Assembly: GCA_964615905.1 (NCBI GenBank)
Contig: CAZTUB010000002.1
Location: 154,538 to 218,537, forward strand
Direction: 5' to 3'
DNA from: an uncultured Clostridia bacterium
GTDB lineage: Bacteria; Acidobacteriota; Blastocatellia; UBA7656
Length of the DNA stretch: 64,000 bases
Part shown: positions 6,530-61,332 of the stretch, piece by piece
Numbering within the stretch: the first letter of the stretch is position 1
Layout: every line of letters starts with the position of its first letter
Program-made: the position numbers and the translations under genes
The notes under the pieces: model-generated
Seen by the model: the letters and a program-made list of their open reading frames with translations, nothing else
Told to the model about the DNA's origin: nothing
The model's database searches: none

Positions 6530-7273
6530 ATGGATCAAGATATAAGACTCGACGCGCTCGGCATCGGCGCGCATCCTGACGACACGGAGTTCTCGTGCGG
6601 CGGCACGCTCGTAAAGCTCGCCGCGCTCGGATACCGTGTAGGCATACTCGACATGGCGCGCGGCGAGCTTGGCACGCGCGGGTCTGCGGAGATTCGCGCT
6701 CGCGAAGCAGAGGCGGCCGCCTCCGCTTTAGGGCTTGCGGTGCGCGATAACCTTGAGCTGCCCGACGGTCATATCTGGCTCACGCTGGAGTCGCGCCTTC
6801 GCATGGTGCGAAAGATTCGGCAGTACCGGCCCCGCGTGATCTTCACGCATTACTGGGAAGACCCGCACCCTGACCACGTTCATACCTGCCAGATAGTCCG
6901 CGAAGCGGCGCACGTCGCAGGGCTTGCCAAGTACGACGGCGATTATGGGCAGGAACGATTCCGGCCTTCGGCTGTCGCACATTTCATGTTCCCGCGCACG
7001 GTCGTTCCCAGCTTTGTCGTCGATATAACCGATCACGCGAAGCAGAAGTGGGAAGCCGTCGCTTGCTACCGCTCGCAGCTTTACGACCCCGCAAGCCAGG
7101 AGCCCGAAACCGCCATAAGCAACGAAGCATTCCTGGGCCGCCTGGAATCCCGCGAGCGGTTTTACGGCTCACTCATCGCGGTCGAACGCGCCGAAGCGTT
7201 CGTCGTGCGCGAAGCGCTCAACGTTGGCGACCCGGTCGAGCTTCTGACTCGGCGGATGAATATGTACTCCTGA
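6530..7273 (+). CDS. bshB1: Bacillithiol biosynthesis deacetylase BshB1 (PIG-L family)
   Basis: AHPDDTE, GELGTRG and HPDH motifs. TGATG-coupled to bshA. Confidence 0.9.
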   Translation: MDQDIRLDALGIGAHPDDTEFSCGGTLVKLAALGYRVGILDMARGELGTRGSAEIRAREAEAAASALGLAVRDNLELPDGHIWLTLESRLRMVRKIRQYRPRVIFTHYWEDPHPDHVHTCQIVREAAHVAGLAKYDGDYGQERFRPSAVAHFMFPRTVVPSFVVDITDHAKQKWEAVACYRSQLYDPASQEPETAISNEAFLGRLESRERFYGSLIAVERAEAFVVREALNVGDPVELLTRRMNMYS

Positions 7274-8424
7274 TGAAGATCGGCATAACCTGTTACCCGT
7301 CATACGGCGGCAGCGGCATAGTCGGCGCGGAGCTGGGGCTTGAGCTTGCCCGTCGCGGCCACGAGATCCATTTCGTAAGCTACGCCCCGCCGATGCGACT
7401 CGGAAACGCGGCGCTGCGCGAACGCATACAGTTTCACTCGGTCGATATGCTGAGCTACCCGCTGTTCGACTACCCGCCCTACACCGACGCGCTCGCGTCG
7501 AAGCTGTGCGAGGTCGCGCGCTCGCACTCGCTTGACCTGCTGCACGTGCATTATGCGATACCGCACGCCGTCAGCGCGTATCTCGCGCGCGAGATGCTCA
7601 AGCCTGAGCGATACCTGCCCGTAGTCACGACGCTGCACGGGACAGATATAACGCTTGTCGGGCGCGACCCCTCGTTCCTGTCGATCACGCGGTTCGGCAT
7701 AGAGCAGTCGGACGCGGTTACGGCGATCTCCAGCTACCTGCGCGAAGCCACTATGGATACGTTCTGCGCCTCTTGCTCGATAGATGTTATCTACAACTTC
7801 ATCGACGCAGGTTTTTATAAGCGCGCCCCCGACCTGTCGCTCAAGCGGGAATTTGTTCCCGACCATGAAAAGCTCATACTGCACATATCGACCTTTCGCC
7901 CCGTAAAACGGATCATGGATTGCCTTGAGGTCATGGCGCGCATTCGTGTGAGCGAGAGCGTGCGCGCGCGCCTTGTCATGTGCGGCGACGGTCCTGAGCG
8001 GGCCGAAGCCGAAGCGATGGCCGAACGGCTCGGCGTGGCCGACTCGGTCGTTTTCGTCGGCAAGCAACCGCAATCGCAGATACGCGATTATCTTTCGGTC
8101 GCGGATTTGCTGCTGCTGCCGAGCCAGACAGAGTCGTTCGGGCTGGTCGCGCTCGAAGCTATGGCCTGCGAAGTCCCTGTCATCGCCACGCGCGTAGGCG
8201 GGCTGCCTGAAGTCGTGATCGACGGCGAAACCGGGTTTCTGTTTGATGTAGGCGACGTGGATCAGATGGCCGGGGCGGCGCTCCGCATTCTTTCCGATAC
8301 GGGCGAAGCCGAGCGGCTCGGCAAGCAAGGCCGCACGCGGGCCGTCACCCATTTCACAACCGATAAGATAATCCCTCAGTACGAAAAGCTGTACTCAGAT
8401 GTCCTGAACAGGCGCGCTGGCTGA
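7273..8424 (+). CDS. bshA: N-acetyl-alpha-D-glucosaminyl L-malate synthase BshA (GT4)
   Basis: [48 protein letters not shown] and [13 protein letters not shown]. Start is ATG 7273, not the longer track ORF. Confidence 0.93.
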
Positions 8425-51700: not shown

Positions 51701-52354
51701 TCAGTCCTTAGAAAAGGCTGTGGTCTTTATCATCAGCACTCCGAGCAGCGAATTCCAAATAGCCTGCGCGAAGACCAGAATGCCAAAGCCGTGCACGTTC
51801 AAGCGGAGGTGACCGGAGAAAAACGCCGCGAGGCTGACTAACCCGATGACCAGACCCAGCAGCCCGACGATCTTTGCGAACGTCCCGGCTCTCAGTATCA
51901 AGATCGACCAGAAGACCACCGCGAACGACGAAGCTACAACAAAGACCTTCGCGAACGCCTGGTTGAGAAGCAGGTTGTAATCCAATACGAGATGCAACAT
52001 CTCTTGCGACGGCCCTTCGCTTGTCAGTATGTCTCGCGTAAGCGTGGGCGCGACCAGACCGTTGAGCGTCGCCGCGCACAGGACGGCCACAGCGCCGAAG
52101 CTGTAGACGACGAAGGCCGCCCAGGCGAGCGCGTGATCTGAAAGACGGCGGGTCAGACCTAGAAGCCCAAACGTCACGACGGGAGTGCTTGCGAGCGCGA
52201 GCGAGTGCGTCAGCACCGTGATCATCTCAAATCTTCGAGCGACCTCGTCAGGCTGGCCGAGCAGGTCGCGGCCCGTGGGGTGAAAGATCATCGTCGCGAC
52301 CATCCCCAGCGAACCGGCGATGAGCGCAAGTCCGTAGATAGACCGGTGCTTCAT
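51701..52354 (-). CDS. Multi-pass membrane protein (possible TetR-regulated target)
   Basis: About six TM segments and conserved-looking FHPTG. Divergent from tetR. Confidence 0.7.
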   Translation of the reverse strand: MKHRSIYGLALIAGSLGMVATMIFHPTGRDLLGQPDEVARRFEMITVLTHSLALASTPVVTFGLLGLTRRLSDHALAWAAFVVYSFGAVAVLCAATLNGLVAPTLTRDILTSEGPSQEMLHLVLDYNLLLNQAFAKVFVVASSFAVVFWSILILRAGTFAKIVGLLGLVIGLVSLAAFFSGHLRLNVHGFGILVFAQAIWNSLLGVLMIKTTAFSKD

Positions 52355-52484
52355 TAACAGTCTCCCTTTCAACCTAAGAATATCCCTTGAGTCTATTAAA
52401 AGCGGCGCAGGCTGTCAGCAGATAAGCCCGCGCCGAATGTTTCATAATGGACAAATCGACCGACTTTGTTTGAAAATGTGAGCC

Positions 52485-53081
52485 ATGACCGCCGAAAGTA
52501 AGAAAGCTGACCGCAGGTCGTCGCGCACGCGGCGCTCTTTGCGAGATGCCTTGATCGAGCTGATCCTTGAGAAGCGCTACGACTCTATCACAGTGCAGAA
52601 CGTAATCGACCGGGCGGACGTCGGGCGGTCGACCTTCTATGCTCATTACCGCGACAAAGAAGACCTCTTTTTAAGCGACTGGGAAGCGATGCTCGACCGG
52701 TTCGCCCGGCGCATAGAATGGCATGATGCAAGCGCGCACAGCATTGTCCCGATAGCCGGTCTGTTTAGCCACGTGCAGGAGGCGCACCATTTTTACCTGG
52801 CGATGGCCAGGTCGAGAAAGACCGATTGGCTCTTTAAGACAGGACAGAGTTACCTGAAGCAGAGCATAGAGAATTCGCTCGCGCCGTTCCTTGCGGACAA
52901 GCCCCGTCCGTCGGTGCCGAAGCCTCTCCTGGCGAACTATCTTGCGAGCGAGATACTGGCGCTGCTCAGGTGGTGGCTCGATAACAATATGCCTTACACG
53001 CCTGAGCGGATGGACGAGATTTTTCACGAGCTGGTGATGCCAGGGTTTCGCGCAAGCTTAGGAGCCGGGCAGGATGATTAG
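52485..53081 (+). CDS. TetR/AcrR family transcriptional regulator
   Basis: RTRRSLRDALIEL...ITVQNVIDRADVGRSTFYAHYRDKEDL HTH. Confidence 0.92.
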   Translation: MTAESKKADRRSSRTRRSLRDALIELILEKRYDSITVQNVIDRADVGRSTFYAHYRDKEDLFLSDWEAMLDRFARRIEWHDASAHSIVPIAGLFSHVQEAHHFYLAMARSRKTDWLFKTGQSYLKQSIENSLAPFLADKPRPSVPKPLLANYLASEILALLRWWLDNNMPYTPERMDEIFHELVMPGFRASLGAGQDD

Positions 53082-54314
53082 CACAGACGGCGTGTTTTGA
53101 GGGTCGTGAAGCCGCAGGTAATAGTATCCGATTCCGGCGAGGCCGAGCATGAGATTTGGCGCTTCGCCGCCCCCGTTGACGCCGCAAGGCCAGGCAAACC
53201 TGTTCTTCATAAATTGCTCGGCTCCAAGCACGCCTATCTGATCGGCGACCGCCCTGTGCTCGCCGTTTTCAAGCACCGCGCTCGCATATATCAACAGGTC
53301 CGCGTTGCCCGCGTTTCCATGACAGAGCGAAAAATTATTATGGTTATGATAGGTCAGGTTCCTTGTCGTGGTTCTGATAGCTGCTTCCGCTTCGTCGCGG
53401 TAAGACTGGTCGCCGGTCAGCTCAAAGAGCCTCAATCGCGAAAGCCCTATGCCGGGCGCTCCGTGACACCAGGCGACCATATAGCTGAGCGATTGAGCGG
53501 ATGATTCCGAAGTCGCGGTGTAGTTGCGAAGGTCCGGCCAGTTCTCCTGTTCGGGGTTGTACCAGCGCCTTTCATAATAGATGGCCTGCTCGGCTGCGAC
53601 GCGGAACTTCTGCTGCTCGGTTTTCTTGTACAGCTCGAATAACGCCCACGCTATGCCGGCCGTGCCGTGCGAAAAGCCTGTCAGGTCGGGTTGCTGCAAC
53701 TCGGCCGGGGTATTGAATGTGTTCCAGGACCAACCGGCGGCGGTCTTTCTCGCGGCAGCGATGAGGTGCTCTCCGTGCCTGATCGCTTCGTCCAGCAGAT
53801 AATCGTGCCGGTACTTCTGATGGATATTCAGCAGCACGGGAATCACGCCCGCGCTGCCCGCGATAATATCGAGGCCGCTTGCTGATACCTCTTCTTTGGC
53901 TAGGTTTTTAAGGATGCGCAAACCCTTCTCTACAAGCTTTGCGTCGTCGAGTACCTCGCCGATCTTGATAAATGCGTACGCGACGCCTGCGCGCCCGGTG
54001 TAAAACGCCCCGCGAGTTATCTGAGGGATGTCGTCCAATCTCGACGAGCTTTGCCGCAAGGCGGCCTCGGCGGTGAGGCGAAACATCCTCTCGCCCGTCG
54101 CCCGGTACAGGTACGTAAGGTAATAAGCGATCCCGCTCGTGCCGTTATAAAACTCGGGGCCGAATGCGCGGTGTACGAGCGTCCAGGCATTACCCACCGG
54201 CTCGAAAGAATCGCCGAGCCAGTTACACCGGTCTCCTGACCACATGGCGTCGCGGCACAACCTCGCGCCTATGTAATCGGCCGTCTCAATAAATATATCG
54301 CTCGGTTTACTCAT
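53058..54314 (-). CDS. lanC: Stand-alone LanC-like lanthionine cyclase
   Basis: YNGTSGI, DIIAGSAG, GFSHGTAGI (catalytic His), WCHGAPGI and LCHGNAG (Cys/Cys-His Zn ligands), LMLGLAGIG. Confidence 0.9.
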   Translation of the reverse strand: MSKPSDIFIETADYIGARLCRDAMWSGDRCNWLGDSFEPVGNAWTLVHRAFGPEFYNGTSGIAYYLTYLYRATGERMFRLTAEAALRQSSSRLDDIPQITRGAFYTGRAGVAYAFIKIGEVLDDAKLVEKGLRILKNLAKEEVSASGLDIIAGSAGVIPVLLNIHQKYRHDYLLDEAIRHGEHLIAAARKTAAGWSWNTFNTPAELQQPDLTGFSHGTAGIAWALFELYKKTEQQKFRVAAEQAIYYERRWYNPEQENWPDLRNYTATSESSAQSLSYMVAWCHGAPGIGLSRLRLFELTGDQSYRDEAEAAIRTTTRNLTYHNHNNFSLCHGNAGNADLLIYASAVLENGEHRAVADQIGVLGAEQFMKNRFAWPCGVNGGGEAPNLMLGLAGIGYYYLRLHDPQNTPSVLIILPGS

Positions 54315-54320
54315 CGTTGT

Positions 54321-55358
54321 TCAAGCCTGGACGCCTGGGAATGTGTAGACGTTTTGCGACCCCGGATTCAGGTAAGCCCGTTCGAGGTCGATCCGGTAAT
54401 CTTGAAACTGCTTTACCACCTCCTGCAAACGCGCGTGCTCTGTCTTCGCGTCGTGGTTGTGAGCGCGAACTATCCCTTCCGCGAGTATCCGCGAGCGCTG
54501 CGTGCCGAAGCTGTCTTTGTCGCCGGGGTCTTCGGCGAACCCCAGCCCTCGCGCGAGCCGTTTGGCAAAGAGCGGCGTGTCGGGCAACAGGTGCTGCCGG
54601 ACGCTTCTGTGCACGTCTGTCAAAAGCTCCGTCGTTATTCGATAATACCGCTTGCTGACATACAAGACTGCGGAATCGAGCCGCGTGTAAGAATCGGGCG
54701 TCGTCAAACACTTAAACCGAAACGGCAGCTGAAAGCGATTGAGAGATCGGGTAACATGCCGCATCAATTCGGGCGCGCCTGCGGCCTCGACGTTCCAGTA
54801 AAAACGGACAAGGTTGTAATCGTTGGCGTCGTCGATCATCGCCTCGCTAAAGGCCATGTAAAAACCCGGCTGTAGAGTCCTCGACTCTTTCGGGGAAAAG
54901 ACCCTTATGGTTGCGCCGACTCTCAAGGGCATGCCGGGGCCGTCGAGCGTGATAAATTCACCCGCCCAAAAGCTGCGGCTCACACCGTTTTTTTGTGCGG
55001 CTACCTGGCCCGACGGAAGGATTTGAACGACCTGCCACCCAAAATCCCACCGCTCGCGGCTGGCGTTAGCGTCGGACAGAAGCTCGATGAAATCGTTGTC
55101 GGGCGAAGCGCCGGGCCGGTCATCGGGAAGGTCGCCGGTAAACTTATGACAGAAGCAGTAGAAGTACAGATAGTTCGTCAGCAGCGCGACGAGCGGGCTT
55201 TCGGTCTCGACAGGGATAGAGATATTAGCAGGCATGGCCGACTGGTCTATGACGCGGCCACCGAAAGAGAACGAAGTCGGCGACAGGATCGTAACGGCCT
55301 TCAGAATCTTGCGTATCTCTGTGACTACCTGACTTGCCATCCTTACCTCGTCGCTCAC
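54321..55358 (-). CDS. HopA1-like protein (putative phospho-Ser/Thr lyase, LanY-type)
   Basis: RFYWN, FRFKCL, RLDSAVLY, GLGFAEDPG and SFGTQRSRILAEG. Translationally coupled to an APH kinase and a LanC. Confidence 0.8.
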   Translation of the reverse strand: MSDEVRMASQVVTEIRKILKAVTILSPTSFSFGGRVIDQSAMPANISIPVETESPLVALLTNYLYFYCFCHKFTGDLPDDRPGASPDNDFIELLSDANASRERWDFGWQVVQILPSGQVAAQKNGVSRSFWAGEFITLDGPGMPLRVGATIRVFSPKESRTLQPGFYMAFSEAMIDDANDYNLVRFYWNVEAAGAPELMRHVTRSLNRFQLPFRFKCLTTPDSYTRLDSAVLYVSKRYYRITTELLTDVHRSVRQHLLPDTPLFAKRLARGLGFAEDPGDKDSFGTQRSRILAEGIVRAHNHDAKTEHARLQEVVKQFQDYRIDLERAYLNPGSQNVYTFPGVQA

Positions 55359-56449
55359 AAACCCAGCAGCTCGGTTATCGCCTCGTCCGGGCTTTCGAGA
55401 ATATTTAAGCTGACCTGAAGAAGAGAGATCGCGTTGGGCGTTATATGCGGCGACGGGCTCATGTGCTCGTAAACGGTCTGGATCATCCGCGCCGCGCCGT
55501 ACCGCACGCTTTTTTTAAGCAACTCCCTCAGGGTTTTGTTGTCGGCGTCCAGGGACTCCGTGTATGACATCCAGAAAGCTTTTATCGCGGGCTGCATGTC
55601 GTCGATAGGATACTTTGCCTGGTCCATAAGCTGTGAAGGCGGAACGCCAGCGACTGACGGGATAGACAAAAGCCAGCAGGTGATATACGCCTGGAAGATC
55701 GCGCCCGCGTCCCAGCACGCGTCGCCTATGTCGGCCAGCTCCCAATCGACAATCTTTAAGCCCGGCTGCTGGTCGCCGTTCTTGTACAAAACGCAATTCT
55801 CCCATTTTATGTCGCCGTGGATTAAGCAGTTGAACTCGTACTGGTTTTGAAGCCCGTTTAACATCTCGTGGAATTCGGGGAAGCTCTTGACTATGTTGAT
55901 AACCTCGGAATTAGCCGCGCTTATCGGCTCTAAAAAATTCGGGTTCAGCTGGTGCAGTTGCAGAATCCACGGCATGCGCTTCTGAAACAGGGAGATTTTG
56001 GCACTGCCCTTGATCTTCTCGGTTATGTCGCGATGAAACCGGCCCAGGAGCTTGCCGACTTGCGCGGCCGTATCGGCGGGAAATTTGCCGAGCCGCGCGT
56101 GGTAATCGGCAAGATTTTCTCCGTCCTTTAACAACTCCACGACAAGTATATGCCTGCTCGCGTCGTAATCGTGATAACGAGGCATAAGCGGAACGAGCGG
56201 CGCGAACTCTTCGTCCGATTGCGAGAGCTGGTATGTGGTGGCTTCATACTGCAATGTGATGATGGCTTGCTGATCCCACGTCTTGATCTGCTTTAAGAAA
56301 AGGCCGGGGCTGTGGTCTCTCAGGACCATAAAGTTTCGATTGCGGAGCGATTTTTCGACCACGCGGAAGTCGCCGTCGACAACCGATTCGTAAGTTATCA
56401 GCCCGCGCCCCAAAAGATAATGCGCGATGTTTGCCGCCGTCAGTATCAT
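55355..56449 (-). CDS. Aminoglycoside phosphotransferase-fold kinase (putative LanK-type peptide kinase)
   Basis: RNRNF, LFLKQ, LIHGDIKWEN (Brenner motif) and VDWELADIGD motifs. Confidence 0.85.
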   Translation of the reverse strand: MILTAANIAHYLLGRGLITYESVVDGDFRVVEKSLRNRNFMVLRDHSPGLFLKQIKTWDQQAIITLQYEATTYQLSQSDEEFAPLVPLMPRYHDYDASRHILVVELLKDGENLADYHARLGKFPADTAAQVGKLLGRFHRDITEKIKGSAKISLFQKRMPWILQLHQLNPNFLEPISAANSEVINIVKSFPEFHEMLNGLQNQYEFNCLIHGDIKWENCVLYKNGDQQPGLKIVDWELADIGDACWDAGAIFQAYITCWLLSIPSVAGVPPSQLMDQAKYPIDDMQPAIKAFWMSYTESLDADNKTLRELLKKSVRYGAARMIQTVYEHMSPSPHITPNAISLLQVSLNILESPDEAITELLGL

Positions 56450-56613
56450 AAAATCTCAGGCTATCGGATGTTATTCCACTTACTCTCGCCTATGCGCACT
56501 TTTGTGGGAAGCCTTCCGGTATGGAAAGCGGGTATATGTCTTTCTAACGAGATTAATCGCAACCTTGATCGTCTGCGGTTATATCAGAAGTTGAACCCCC
56601 ACAGCAAGAAGTC

Positions 56614-56649
56614 GGCAAGTCTCACTATCGCGAAATAGCGAGACTTGCC
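56614..56649 (-). terminator. Stem-loop between precursor and modification genes (attenuator or RNA-stabilising hairpin)
   Basis: GGCAAGTCTC-A-CTAT / ATAG-C-GAGACTTGCC, 21 nt downstream of the precursor stop. Confidence 0.7.
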
Positions 56650-56669
56650 TTGACGAGGTTACACGGCTG

Positions 56670-57896
56670 CTAATAGCAGCACGCGGTGTGAATGCCCGAA
56701 CAGGGTTGCTGTGCCGTGGGCGGGCAGCACTGAGTGTAGACGCCTGAGCAAGGCGGTTGAGTGATTATGCAGCACTGCGTGCGAATGCCGGAGCAGGGTT
56801 GGTGCGAAATCGGCCCCGGGTCAGGACAGCACGCCGTGTGAATACCAGAGCACGGCTGTTGCGCCGTGGGTGGACAGCAAGCCGTGTAGATGCCTGAACA
56901 AGGAACCTGCGCTGTCGGCGGGCAGCACTGCGTGCGGATGCCCGAACATGGCTGGTGCGAAATCGGCCCTGGGTCAGGACAGCACGCGGTGTGAATGCCC
57001 GAACAGGGTTGCTGTGCCGTGGGCGGGCAGCACTGAGTGTAGACGCCTGAGCAAGGCGGTTGAGTGATTATGCAGCACTGCGTGTGAATGCCGGAGCACG
57101 GCGGCCGCGAGATCGGTGCGGCAGCCTGCAAAGCGTCAGCCTGCAAGCAGCACTGCGTCTGTATGCCTGAGCAGGGCTGGTGCGATACCGGGCTGGGGCA
57201 GCATTGGGTCTGGACCCCTGAACACGGCGGGGCCGAGACGAGGGCCTGTCCCTGCGGGCAACATTGCGTCTGGACTCCCGAACAGGGAGGGTGCGAGACG
57301 ACGCAGCATTGCGTGTAAACGCCTGAGCAAGGCGGGGCGGAGACGAGAGGCCCGACCGCCTGTGCGCCCACTGCTCCCGCCGGACAGCACTGCGTCTGAA
57401 TACCTGAGCAGGGCTGGTGCGATACCGGGCTGGGGCAGCATTGGGTCTGGACCCCTGAACACGGCGGGTGCGAAATTACAGGGCCGGGACAGCACTGCGT
57501 CTGGACTCCTGAGCAGGGTGGAGCGGAGACGGGAGTGGCTGCCTGCGCGCCCGTGCCGGCTTGATACTGCTGCTGTATTCGGCCCTCCAGAAATTTGGCC
57601 TTCGGTCGGTCACCACCGGCTTTCCCATGCGTCACATCCGCGTCGCGATTTATCCAGACATAACTGCCGCCAAGCGGCGACTGCTCTGCCGGAAGCTCGA
57701 CGGTGTGCAAAACCGCATCCTGGGGAATCTCTACGTAATCGCTCAATTGCGGATCGAGGTAGAGCCTTATGTGGTCTTCCTCAGAAGAGGCCCCCAAATA
57801 CCCCTGTAATAGCAACGCATCCGGTGGATTATTCGGGTCCTTGACTATCTGATCAACGAAGCTGGCTGTTTTGTTATTTCCTGTTTGTCGAGGCAT
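56670..57896 (-). CDS. Giant multi-repeat RiPP (lanthipeptide-like) precursor: ~120-aa leader plus 16 Cys/Ser/Thr-rich units
   Basis: GGAGGA RBS. Cys-free leader followed by 16 copies of P-C-S-G-[V/I]-x-T-[Q/A]-C-C. First gene of the kinase-lyase-cyclase operon. Confidence 0.85.
   Translation of the reverse strand: MPRQTGNNKTASFVDQIVKDPNNPPDALLLQGYLGASSEEDHIRLYLDPQLSDYVEIPQDAVLHTVELPAEQSPLGGSYVWINRDADVTHGKAGGDRPKAKFLEGRIQQQYQAGTGAQAATPVSAPPCSGVQTQCCPGPVISHPPCSGVQTQCCPSPVSHQPCSGIQTQCCPAGAVGAQAVGPLVSAPPCSGVYTQCCVVSHPPCSGVQTQCCPQGQALVSAPPCSGVQTQCCPSPVSHQPCSGIQTQCCLQADALQAAAPISRPPCSGIHTQCCIITQPPCSGVYTQCCPPTAQQPCSGIHTACCPDPGPISHQPCSGIRTQCCPPTAQVPCSGIYTACCPPTAQQPCSGIHTACCPDPGPISHQPCSGIRTQCCIITQPPCSGVYTQCCPPTAQQPCSGIHTACCY
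56677..57468. repeat. Exact internal duplications in the precursor gene
   Basis: 105 bp identical at 56677-56781 and 56980-57084. 66 bp identical at 57166-57231 and 57403-57468. Confidence 0.85.
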
Positions 57897-58227
57897 GAGT
57901 CGATTCCTCCGTCGAAGTGATTAACACCATGGGTGAGGTTCTTATGCCAAAGAATCGCAGAAGGTAATAAGTCTTACTGCCTTTGTTTGTACGTGCTATC
58001 ATCCGCGTCTCTAGCAAGATGCCTGCCCGTATTGGGACGCTTGAACCCTTGAGATTGCTGCGATACTAACTGAGAGACGGGCATTATAATCCAAATCACC
58101 GAATCTGAGAAGTAATGTTCGTTTCTTTCGGTCGACAAGGGCAGATCACATTGGACCCTGTTGGCAAGTAGGCGACAGATTCTGTTATGATGCCCCGGAA
58201 TCTACGAGCTGCGGAGTAATAGGATCA

Positions 58228-60012
58228 ATGGGCGAACCCAACAGGAAACGGCGTTTCTGTCTCGTGCTAATCAAGCCGTCGCATTACGACGACGACGGCT
58301 ACGTCATACAGTGGTTCCGGTCTGCTATCCCCTCAAACTCGCTTGCGGTGCTCAACGGGCTGGCGCTCGAAGCTGCCAAACAGAACGCGCTTGGCGACGA
58401 TGTCCATATAGACATTCATGCCTTTGACGAGACGAACACGCATATACGCCCTGCCCGCATCGCGTCGCTCGTGAAACGGGCCGACGCCGGAATGGTCATG
58501 CTCGTCGGCGTCCAGTCCAACCAGTTCCCGCGAGCGCTCGACATTGCGGCCCCTTTGCGCCGCCAGGGGATTCAGGTCGCCATCGGCGGCTTCCACGTCT
58601 CAGGCACTATCGCGATGCTCAAAGAGCAAGACCCGGATGTTTGCCGCGCGCAGGAGATGGGCGTGTCGTTATTTGCAGGCGAAGCCGAAGGCCGCCTCGG
58701 CCAGGTGTTGCGCGACGCCTGGGACGGGAGGCTCAAGCCGCTCTACAATTTTATGAACGACCTGCCGGACCTCGAAGGCGCGGCCATGCCGTTGCTTCCG
58801 GCCGACCGCGTCAACAGGACCGCGGGCGCGAATACGAGCCTTGACGCGGGGCGCGGTTGTCCTTATCAATGCTCCTTCTGCACAATCATAAACGTCCAGG
58901 GACGCAAATCGCGCCACCGCTCGGCAGATGATGTGGAGCAGATCGTGCGGGCAAACCTCGCGCAGGGGCTTCACAGGTTCTTCATCACCGACGATAATTT
59001 TGCCCGCAACAAGGATTGGGAGGCGATACTGGACCGGCTCATATACCTGCGCGAGGTTGAACGCGTCGAGATGAGCCTCATCATTCAAGTGGACACGTTG
59101 TGCCACAAGCTCCCGAACTTCATCGAGAAAGCCGCCCGCGCAGGCGTCAAGCGAGTCTTCATAGGGCTTGAGAACATAAACCCTGAAAACCTTATCGGCG
59201 CAAAGAAGCGACAGAATAAGATTACCGAATACCGCAAGATGCTGCTTGCGTGGAAGCAGGCGGGGGTTGTGACATATTGCGGCTACATACTCGGCTTCCC
59301 AAATGATGAGCCGGAGACGATCCTGCGCGACATCCGAATCATCCAGAAAGAGCTGCCGGTCGACCTGCTTGAATTCTTCTACCTTACGCCATTGCCGGGT
59401 TCGGAAGACCATCGCAGGCTGCACGAATCGGGGGTGTGGATGGACCCCGATCTCAACAAGTATGACCTCAACCACATTACGACAGGCCACCGAAATATGA
59501 CGCGCGAGCAGTGGGAGCAAGTCTACCGTTCGGCCTGGCAGACGTACTACACGACAGAGCATATTGAAACGGTGCTCAGGCGGGCCATGGCCACTCGAAC
59601 TAGCCCCGGCAAGACGCTCTTCTTTATCGTATGGTTCAAGGGCTGCATCGACATCGAGAAGATACACCCGCTTGAGGGCGGGTTCCTGCGCCTGAAGTTC
59701 CGCACCGCGCGCAGGTCCGGCCTGCCGCTTGAACCTGTCTGGCTGTTCTACCCGAAATATATCGTCGAAGCGATGTGGAAGCAGGTCAGGTGGGTATCGC
59801 TTTATTTGCGCCTGCGGCTCATCTACCTCAAGATCAAACGCGACCCGCAGCGTTACGACTATATGGACCTCGCGCTTGAGCCTGTGGCCGATGACGAGAT
59901 CGAAACCAGAGAGATGTTCCAGTCCGAGGTCGCTCAAACATACGTAGGCCGGGTGCAGCAGATTGAGAGGATGCGCAGGGGCGCGGTCTCAACGCCGCGC
60001 GCAGAGCAGTGA
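58228..60012 (+). CDS. Cobalamin-binding radical SAM protein
   Basis: N-terminal B12-binding Rossmann-like domain (VGVQSNQ; IGGFHVSG), GRGCPYQCSFC (CxxxCxxC), FITDDNF and IGLEN motifs. Confidence 0.9.
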   Translation: MGEPNRKRRFCLVLIKPSHYDDDGYVIQWFRSAIPSNSLAVLNGLALEAAKQNALGDDVHIDIHAFDETNTHIRPARIASLVKRADAGMVMLVGVQSNQFPRALDIAAPLRRQGIQVAIGGFHVSGTIAMLKEQDPDVCRAQEMGVSLFAGEAEGRLGQVLRDAWDGRLKPLYNFMNDLPDLEGAAMPLLPADRVNRTAGANTSLDAGRGCPYQCSFCTIINVQGRKSRHRSADDVEQIVRANLAQGLHRFFITDDNFARNKDWEAILDRLIYLREVERVEMSLIIQVDTLCHKLPNFIEKAARAGVKRVFIGLENINPENLIGAKKRQNKITEYRKMLLAWKQAGVVTYCGYILGFPNDEPETILRDIRIIQKELPVDLLEFFYLTPLPGSEDHRRLHESGVWMDPDLNKYDLNHITTGHRNMTREQWEQVYRSAWQTYYTTEHIETVLRRAMATRTSPGKTLFFIVWFKGCIDIEKIHPLEGGFLRLKFRTARRSGLPLEPVWLFYPKYIVEAMWKQVRWVSLYLRLRLIYLKIKRDPQRYDYMDLALEPVADDEIETREMFQSEVAQTYVGRVQQIERMRRGAVSTPRAEQ

Positions 60013-60032
60013 CCGGCCCCTGCGAGGGGTGT

Positions 60033-60566
60033 TTACTTGGTCCTTAGGTGGAAGAGGTAACATCTACAGCCATTTCCTCCCAGGAAGCATACGCCGGGGC
60101 ATTCCCCATTACAGTCTTCGCAAGAAGGGTAGTTGAACCGTGCGGGGTTCTCGATCAGGTCGATTATCGCGCCAATTTTCGGAAGCACTTTCAGCTTCCC
60201 GGCGGCGTGGCTGACCGTTTCTTTTTGGAATCTACGCTGGTTTGTGCCTTCGATCATGATGGTAAAGGTCTTGAGCTTAGGGTCGACCGCCGTGACCTTG
60301 CCGGTCATGGGCTCGGAGTCGGGGCGTCGCGCGTAGGGGCCGACGCAAAAATATTCCTGGTCGGGTACTGAGCTGCCCGACCAGAATCCGGTTCCCTCGT
60401 TGTCCCAACAAAAATAACGGTGGGCGGAGGACCATTCCTTTGCGCGCTGTATCGCCTCGACACTCTTGGGCGGGTCCTTCTGCGCCCGATTGTGCTGCGC
60501 TACGCCAGGACTGCTAAAGCCAAGCAGGGCTACGAGAGTCAAAGCCGGAACGAGTAATTTCTTCAT
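60033..60566 (-). CDS. Exported hypothetical protein with Cys-rich C-terminal tail
   Basis: AAGGAG RBS, signal peptide MKKLLVPALTLVALLGFSSPGVA, tail CEDCNGECPGVCFLGGNGCRC. Confidence 0.75.
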   Translation of the reverse strand: MKKLLVPALTLVALLGFSSPGVAQHNRAQKDPPKSVEAIQRAKEWSSAHRYFCWDNEGTGFWSGSSVPDQEYFCVGPYARRPDSEPMTGKVTAVDPKLKTFTIMIEGTNQRRFQKETVSHAAGKLKVLPKIGAIIDLIENPARFNYPSCEDCNGECPGVCFLGGNGCRCYLFHLRTK

Positions 60567-61332
60567 GGGAATATCTCCTTTCTTACTTCGACAGTTAGTA
60601 AGCGTTACTATTTGTCGAGCAGAGTCTTGCGAAGGCGTTGTTGAATACAACAGCGAGTCTGGACTAATCTTCTCGGTTATATCAGCAGCAGCTTGCGTTA
60701 ATAAGCGATATAATTCCGAAGAATTTAATGCCATTGATAGTATTTTATCCCTTAAGGCTTTTTCCGGGGTCGGAGGTGTCATACGAACACTTTTTCTAGG
60801 CATATGATTTTTCCCAGGAACCTTTTCAAAGTATTTCCAGAATCATAAAAAGACTTAAAGCCAACTATATTATTAGCAACCCTGCATATGATCAAATCAG
60901 TTATAACTGCCAATTCCTTTTCCTCATCTTTCCCTCGTGTTAATCGGGGCAAGAAGTCTAAGCAACTACTCCCGACTTCCTCCCCCCACCCACACCCGCG
61001 CCGCCACAAAGCTAGACAGGACGTTTCACGTTCGGTAATGGCTTTCTTCTCTCCTTTTGCGCGTGGCCGCAGATTTTGAGACCAGGCAAGGCGGTTAAGC
61101 TGCGCCTTTTCTCCTTCCCCTTTGCGGGCGGTCAAAACGGGGCTGGCTATCGGCATATACCCCTTTGCTACAAGCCTCTTGTGAGCCTCTATCAGCAGCG
61201 CGATAGCCCGTAGTGAAGCCCTGACGCTAGATGCTGAGATGTCTCTTTGTACCCCCTAGTAATAGATAGAATGGTGATTTCTGATAGAACTAGGTCTTTC
61301 TGAAGCGGCCGCGCTGTAACCTGGCGCTGGCC

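Follow-up and report, generated by a model that had tools for sequence, protein, structure and literature searches.

Internal spacers of a 16-unit lanthipeptide-type precursor are most likely duplicated copies of its leader-core junction

We examined a repeat-built precursor gene located at positions 56670 to 57896 (minus strand) of a 64,000-nucleotide stretch of contig CAZTUB010000002.1, here called the window, from an uncultured bacterium placed in the Blastocatellia (Acidobacteriota). The gene encodes 408 amino acids, with a conserved N-terminal domain followed by 16 Cys/Ser/Thr-rich units, and its sequence assigns it to a split pathway of the lanthipeptide type, as the precursor. Long Ala- and Gln-rich segments stand before units 1, 4, 6, and 8. 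The internal spacers among them are most likely duplicates of the stretch that joins the leader to the array, and they mark borders of duplications or modules rather than proven cutting sites. Our preferred reading, which we hold with somewhat better than even confidence, is that the four segments are one leader-core junction and three internal paralogous copies of it, which would act as flexible, modification-free separators marking duplicated blocks of junction plus units.

Translation of the gene gave a Cys-free N-terminal portion of ~111 residues followed by 16 tandem units of the form CSG[VI]xT[QA]CC, with 48 Cys in the tail. A Ser or Thr is placed 4 to 5 residues N-terminal to the first Cys in every unit, in the context [VI]S[AHR][PQ]PC or T[AQ]Q[QV]PC. 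All parts of the precursor lie on the minus strand. The leader domain (residues 1 to 111; 57564 to 57896), documented by a family alignment and an AlphaFold2 model, ends in the helix KAKFLEGRIQQQY. It is followed by the leader-core junction, QAGTGAQAATPVSAPP (residues 112 to 127; 57516 to 57563), which the initial annotation had counted as the first spacer, and by cassette 1, comprising units 1 to 3 (residues 127 to 171; 57384 to 57518). Spacer 2, PAGAVGAQAVGPLVSAPP (18 amino acids, residues 172 to 189; 57330 to 57383), precedes unit 4 and thus cassette 2, comprising units 4 and 5 (residues 189 to 213; 57258 to 57332). Spacer 3, PQGQALVSAPP (11 amino acids, residues 214 to 224; 57225 to 57257), precedes unit 6, the first unit of cassette 3 (units 6 and 7; residues 224 to 250; 57147 to 57227), which is a near-exact DNA copy of units 2 and 3. 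Spacer 4, LQADALQAAAPISRPP (16 amino acids, residues 251 to 266; 57099 to 57146), precedes unit 8 and opens cassette 4 (units 8 to 16; residues 266 to 408; 56673 to 57101), which consists of higher-order repeats with a period of 153 nucleotides. The initial annotation had described long, Cys-free, Ala-rich linkers ahead of units 1, 4, 6, and 8, as the translation bears out, and had grouped the units as 3+2+2+9, which is correct on the basis of linker lengths and the junction before unit 1. The interval that it gave, 57090 to 57560, corresponds to residues 113 to 269 and spans all four segments.

The ordinary Cys-free linkers between units are 6 to 10 amino acids long, and spacers 2, 3, and 4 are the three exceptions. 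Spacer 3 exceeds the longest ordinary linker (PDPGPISHQP) by a single residue and is distinctive in composition, not length. Since the final five residues of each spacer ([VI]S[AR]PP) are part of the repeat unit, we also considered the spacers proper with this unit part removed: PAGAVGAQAVGPL, PQGQAL, and LQADALQAAAP. Ala accounts for 10 of the 30 residues in the spacers proper versus 4 of 91 in the short linkers (Fisher P = 1e-4), and Ser, Thr, and Cys are absent (0 of 30) versus 14 of 91, although these counts are not independent, the units being duplicates of each other. The 408 amino acids contain the tripeptide QA[AVL] exactly four times, once per spacer if the junction is counted. The longer pattern previously proposed for the spacers, [G/L]-x-Q-A-[A/V/L], fits the junction and spacer 2 but fails in spacers 3 and 4, and what all four have in common is QA[AVL]. 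Spacer 4 also forms the border between units of the VQ/IQ type and units of the IH/IR/VY type.

The initial annotation had offered, as its second choice, that the spacers are relics of the duplication of a module made of the leader end and a core, and this idea gained support from spacer-junction alignments, from shuffling, and from insertions in global alignments. Spacer 2 (GAVGAQAVG-PLVSAPPC) aligned with the corresponding junction in P0056 (GGTGAQAGGQPLVSAPPC), the closest homologue and a truncated sequence, with a score of 66 including the unit part. Significance was assessed by composition-preserving shuffles in which only spacer-proper residues were shuffled and scored against junction-proper residues, which corrects for low complexity as well as for the unit part that the segments share. 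By this test, the match of spacer 2 proper had a P value of 0.006 against the P0056 junction and 0.02 against the junction of its own gene, with which it shares ~69% DNA identity, a level like that of the older unit pairs. Spacer 3 (PQGQALVSAPPC) matched the P0001 junction end (PGGQALVSAQPC; PGGQALVSAQP) at 10 of 12 aligned positions, and the spacer proper gave a P value of 0.0055. Spacer 4 (QAAAPISRPPC) aligned at 8 of 11 positions with the end of its own junction (QAATPVSAPPC), with a P value of 0.03 for the spacer proper. Alignment also shows homology between the window gene's own junction and those of P0056 (QGGTGAQAGGQPLVSAPP) and P0001. When the best spacer-junction scores were summed, the combined P value was 0.001. 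In a comparison covering 90 family members with spacers, the window gene's own junction matched its spacers better than 99% of foreign family junctions did (z = 7.3 versus shuffles). Finally, in global alignments to P0001 and P0056, residues 119 to 213 (95 amino acids) and 120 to 176 (57 amino acids) of the window protein, respectively, appeared as insertions with junction-like segments at their borders.

A second layer of duplication could be separated from the spacers. The copy of units 2 and 3 that forms units 6 and 7 is almost identical over ~85 nucleotides, and identity collapses at the flanking spacers; this copying is a much younger event. Because identity is lost at the spacers on both sides, they were not carried along, and we rejected the possibility that a spacer was co-carried in the duplication of units 2 and 3. 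Within cassette 4, Tandem Repeats Finder reported 2.5 copies of the 153-nucleotide period, and the 100% DNA identity of units 9 and 15, together with the 97% identity of units 10 and 16, indicates that the higher-order duplication there is very recent.

In the model that we favor, blocks made of the junction and the first units would have been duplicated in tandem within the gene, which would have produced the internal spacers. Each copy would retain what the first unit needs, namely, an unmodifiable Ala/Gln/Gly stretch and then [VI]S[AR]PP-C, which supplies Ser and Cys to the first ring. The spacers would then function as flexible, modification-free separators and as places of cassette gain and loss. 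We infer this linker role; the spacers do not have the look of a specific recognition or cleavage motif.

Several observations weigh against descent from the junction. The segments that carry the similarities are short and of low complexity, and the single P values are modest. QA[AVL] is found once per spacer, 4 to 7 residues ahead of the ring Ser, a placement that could reflect constraint rather than descent alone. Spacers of homologues are often composed of a Gly-rich part resembling a C-terminal tail plus a junction-like part, as would be expected for releasable, autonomous cores. Significant similarity between a protein's own junction and its spacers was found in only 14 of the 90 members, so that spacers in the family did not generally originate by duplication of the junction.

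At the extreme, the resemblance might carry no biological meaning and reflect either chance likeness between low-complexity segments or an assembly artifact of a repetitive gene. In its favor are the shortness and Ala richness of the segments, the post hoc definition of the pattern, and the tendency of repeat arrays to be misassembled. We nevertheless give this explanation almost no credence: the combined P value was obtained with composition-preserving shuffles, the spacers are unique in-frame sequences, and the architecture of the gene is reproduced in >100 homologues. Moreover, the duplicated blocks are either diverged enough (75 to 77% matches in Tandem Repeats Finder) or short enough (~85 nucleotides) to be assembled.

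The closest relatives place the spacers in an evolutionary frame. P0001 is a complete gene of 225 amino acids on contig L016; it has six units that match the pattern, joined by linkers of 7 to 9 residues, and no internal spacers, and the kinase adjoining it is 78% identical to the kinase encoded in the window. A P0001-like gene on contig L020 contains, when read in an alternative frame, 14 CSG-type units, again with linkers that are all 7 to 9 residues long and without an internal spacer. The product called for this locus (L020, 377 to 1393), P0005, results from a frameshift, the wrong frame of the GC-rich repeat being free of stops over 240 codons. The alternative frame holds one in-frame stop, and the coverage of the contig is 2.5; the frameshift and the stop are probably sequencing errors. 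The initial annotation had proposed that the spacers are recognition sites of a protease or other enzyme, delimiting four cores, and had suggested comparing their conservation across homologous precursors. This comparison went against it, as the specific spacers are missing from both P0001 and the L020 gene. Because these relatives carry unbroken arrays of 6 and 14 units, the spacers of the window gene are lineage specific, and they are probably young duplication scars; a spacer-free array of 14 units argues that spacers are not needed for the processing of long arrays. The idea of the cassette as a unit is still live, since cassettes delimited by spacers are a general design of the family even though these specific spacers are not conserved.

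Few arrays are built of this unit type, as a search with the array only recovered just three proteins. Other proteins contributed 14 inter-unit linkers, of which PVAAAVAVSAPP in P0049 was the sole long one. The unit type PPCSGVQTQCC also occurs, as one cassette among others, in P0045, P0046, P0049, P0054, and P0055, whose leaders are only ~28% identical to that of the window protein. This sharing suggests either an exchange of cassettes between distant precursors or strong conservation of that unit.

For a family-wide view, we analyzed the 134 members that have 8 or more Cys C-terminal to the leader. The lengths of Cys-free segments showed a sharp peak at 4 to 9 residues and a separate long tail, with 209 segments of at least 14 residues; 98 of the 134 proteins contained one or more of these. 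The long segments (17% Ala, 19% Gly, 9% Gln, and 8% Ser plus Thr) resembled leader-core junctions in composition (22% Ala, 16% Gly, 9.5% Gln, and 8% Ser plus Thr) and were unlike short linkers (8% Ala, 6% Gly, 22% Pro, and 20% Ser plus Thr). They were also polar in their layout, with a Gly-rich first third resembling a C-terminal tail, an Ala-rich middle, and a last third rich in Pro, Thr, and hydrophobic residues that resembles the end of a junction. The three spacers of the window protein are shorter than is typical of the family and are without the Gly-rich first part.

Long segments divide different repeat types. Sharing of 4-mers between adjacent 25-residue windows was 0.108 within a block versus 0.016 across a spacer, and sharing within exceeded sharing across in 43 proteins, with the reverse in 5 (P = 2e-8). 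Whole cassettes also differ between otherwise related proteins: P0029 equals P0018 plus a 213-amino-acid cassette, both breakpoints of which fall in Ala-rich segments, and similar whole-cassette differences with breakpoints inside long segments distinguish P0074 from P0086 and P0060 from P0076. Many smaller insertions and deletions that change the number of units fall within arrays instead. We infer from these patterns that long, Ala/Gly/Gln-rich, Ser/Thr-poor segments are cassette borders throughout the family and are places of cassette exchange. P0142 (846 amino acids) is an extreme case of cassettes and spacers, with seven near-identical spacers of ~36 residues (GGQGGFGDIYGAAGGAAAAGVGA...SPQ...) between short Cys blocks.

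The leader is the part by which the family is recognized. A search with the leader recovered 1,878 clusters (at 50% identity) with E values of ≤0.001, of which 942 reached 1e-10; the best match was 82% identical, and a word-index search listed 55 homologues of the precursor. A profile search of genome contigs found eight loci, and the named genomes belonged to Terriglobia and other Acidobacteriota, Dormibacterota, Ktedonobacteraceae, and a metagenome-assembled genome (MAG) of Burkholderiaceae. The gene is single copy in its source genome and patchy within its own lineage: the leader was present in 3 of the 61 genomes searched, the window's own included, leaving two related genomes, none of them of the same genus. 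The AlphaFold2 model of the leader (mean pLDDT, the per-residue confidence score, of 79) is rich in beta strands and has a C-terminal helix. A fold search of this model against the PDB gave nothing with an E value of ≤0.001, and the best match, Hcp (E = 0.27; TM score, a measure of structural similarity, of 0.27), was rejected as noise. The precursor as a whole matched no Pfam or NCBIfam model, and a literature search found no description of these long precursors; the nearest was a remark on uncharacterized HopA1-LanC clusters in PMC8153245.

All of the 150 best leader matches carried exactly one leader copy, and no internal copies of the FLEG helix of the leader were found when they were sought as evidence of mini-leaders. 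Given this single match in 150 of 150 proteins and the absence of an internal FLEG motif, one leader is assigned to all cassettes and would act on the array in its entirety. These data bear on a further explanation of the spacers, by which the junction sequence is a binding site for the modifying enzymes and its internal copies bring them back for efficient processing of distant units of the 280-residue array. The spacers do copy the segment adjoining the first processed unit, the arrays are very long for one N-terminal leader, and segments of this kind are widespread in the family, as described above. We consider such a docking role improbable, however, because the L020 gene has its 14 units behind one junction and cassette 4 extends over nine units, so that long arrays manage without spacers. 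In addition, the segments are of low complexity and not conserved in sequence, and duplication never extends to the FLEG helix and the beta domain, which make up the conserved portion of the leader.

Three genes encoding a predicted modification machinery follow the precursor on the same strand. The first (55355 to 56449, minus strand) encodes an APH-fold kinase of 364 amino acids (PF01636, 1.3e-5), in which the motif DWE was found by regular expression and HGDIKWEN was read from the translation. The second (54321 to 55358, minus strand) overlaps the kinase gene by 4 nucleotides and encodes a putative phospho-Ser/Thr lyase of the HopA1 family (345 amino acids; PF17914, 5.3e-41). The third (53058 to 54314, minus strand) starts 6 nucleotides after the HopA1 gene and encodes a stand-alone LanC-type cyclase of 418 amino acids (PF05147, 1.1e-69), which also matches the C-terminal part of LanM (1.5e-93). 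In this protein, the catalytic His is retained along with the zinc ligands Cys, Cys, and His, as His213 (in GFSHG), Cys283 (in WCHG), and Cys331-His332 (in SLCHG). By homology, the kinase would phosphorylate Ser and Thr, the HopA1 lyase would eliminate the phosphate, and the zinc-type LanC would make thioethers by Cys addition.

The order precursor-APH-HopA1-LanC recurs in six other complete loci, on unrelated contigs from metagenomes or MAGs (L002, L003/L004, L005, L017, and L018). Other contigs cover less of the locus: L016 ends within the third gene, so that precursor and kinase only were confirmed there; the P0049 contig has the precursor and kinase before its end; and L019, which carries P0054, ends one unannotated gene past the precursor, with no enzymes on that stretch. 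On L018 (528 to 11705), two precursors stand in tandem, P0004 (535 amino acids) and a 280-amino-acid gene at 7253 to 8095 (probably P0006), followed by APH-HopA1-LanC. Just upstream lies a 1,365-amino-acid Peptidase_S8-VWA gene, a possible but unconserved candidate for a protease.

Surrounding sequence was also inspected. A B12-binding radical S-adenosylmethionine (SAM) gene at 58228 to 60012 (plus strand) is divergent from the precursor; none adjoins the operon at any other locus examined, and the gene is probably outside the conserved system. A promoter-like sequence, TTCTCA-17-TATAAT, is located at 58083 to 58111, ~190 nucleotides 5′ of the precursor start. The gap between precursor and kinase (56450 to 56669) comprises 220 untranslated nucleotides, in which no terminator-like hairpin was found. 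A Rfam search of positions 52000 to 61000 found no family, and neither the antisense open reading frame (ORF) at 57116 to 57844 (plus strand) nor the alternative-frame ORF at 57136 to 57495 (minus strand) matched Pfam.

The composition of the operon bears on whether the spacers are cut. A protease encoded elsewhere might cleave the junction and its copies at QA[AVL] or close to it, releasing the leader and four polycyclic lanthipeptides of 3, 2, 2, and 9 units. Were the leader removed at the junction, the internal copies would be expected to be cleaved as well, and the restriction of QA[AVL] to one occurrence per spacer fits such a scheme, as does the lack of Ser, Thr, and Cys, by which the spacers would remain unmodified and accessible. 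The tail-like and then junction-like makeup of family spacers, between cassettes that differ in repeat type, resembles a fusion of independent cores, and L018 encodes two separate precursors rather than a fusion, with the S8 peptidase gene upstream. We nonetheless regard cleavage as a tenable but unlikely account. Across the eight contexts examined, the conserved neighbors of the operon included neither a protease nor an exporter: no protease adjoins it in the window, L002, L003, or L017, and the peptidase genes near L005 (M13 and M28) and L018 (S8-VWA) are not conserved. There is also no family-general motif: AQA is about twofold enriched yet present in only 28 of the 209 spacers, and the five-residue pattern of the initial annotation occurs at chance level (6 seen versus 4.8 expected). 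The closest relatives, with 6 and 14 units, have no internal spacer.

The same considerations apply to known multi-core precursors, which include those of microviridins, graspetides, and fungal Kex2-processed repeat proteins such as ustiloxin UstA. Like cyanobactin precursors of the PatE type, the window protein has one leader followed by repeated core-like blocks that are split by noncore sequence. In those ribosomally synthesized and posttranslationally modified peptide (RiPP) systems, however, the flanks are conserved motifs matched to dedicated proteases, whereas the window spacers share only composition and QA[AVL]; the window protein has no conserved flanking recognition sequence and its cluster no encoded protease. 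A different comparison is with the interdomain linkers rich in Ala, Pro, Gly, and Gln, for example, the lipoyl-domain linkers of the E2 component of 2-oxo acid dehydrogenases, which are flexible, tolerant of sequence change, and frequent sites of domain gain and loss. The spacers resemble such linkers as low-complexity segments between folded or cross-linked modules. They differ from them in that the modules of the window protein are predicted to be thioether-stapled, RiPP-like repeat blocks and that the linkers appear to be junction derived.

Among lanthipeptide clusters, the window operon has the generic components: genes assigned by homology to Ser/Thr dehydration beside the precursor, a LanC with its zinc ligands and catalytic His, and a regular pattern of Ser/Thr and Cys along the unit array of the precursor. 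Dehydration by a stand-alone APH-fold kinase and a HopA1 protein would liken it, on the grounds of homology, to class V lanthipeptides (the lanthidins lexapeptide, cacaoidin, and pristinin) and to the HopA1-phosphotransferase pair TsaC/TsaD, which was proposed to dehydrate Thr in thioamitide biosynthesis (PMC8153245). Three differences separate it from class V. The kinase, though related, is not an LxmK equivalog (84.7 bits to NF038156, under the cutoff of 315); the cluster has a canonical zinc-type LanC, while the lack of a LanC-like cyclase is a feature of class V; and the precursor is not a short peptide but a 408-amino-acid protein with a ~111-residue leader, predicted to be folded, and 16 units. 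Such genes would not be listed as precursors by short-peptide mining of the kind used in PMC8153245. According to that study, 20% of HopA1-like proteins lie close to LanC-like cyclases or form fusions with them and were uncharacterized.

The window protein belongs to the unnamed leader-and-cassette family both by the homology of its leader and by its long Ala/Gly/Gln-rich, Ser/Thr/Cys-poor segments. It is possible, although we think it unlikely, that the multi-cassette members are bacterial lanthipeptide polyproteins, in which one leader would guide the split kinase, HopA1, and LanC enzymes and a trans-encoded protease would cut the spacers to give several polycyclic thioether peptides (here of 3, 2, 2, and 9 units). 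If that were true, cassette shuffling at spacers would be a built-in means of diversifying the set of products.

Taken alone, the spacers of the window gene are ordinary and of modest interest, and the cassette-and-spacer architecture of the family is the more valuable result. A family of ~1,900 clusters (at 50% identity) that lacks a Pfam or NCBIfam model, and for which we found no description in the literature, combines one leader, predicted to be folded, with interchangeable Cys-rich cassettes bordered by junction-like segments and stands, at every complete locus, next to the trio of kinase, HopA1, and LanC genes. Close relatives differ naturally in having spacers or not, and the products of such precursors may be either one stapled protein or a set of peptides. 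The architecture may offer a concrete design rule for what are possibly the largest lanthipeptide-type substrates known.

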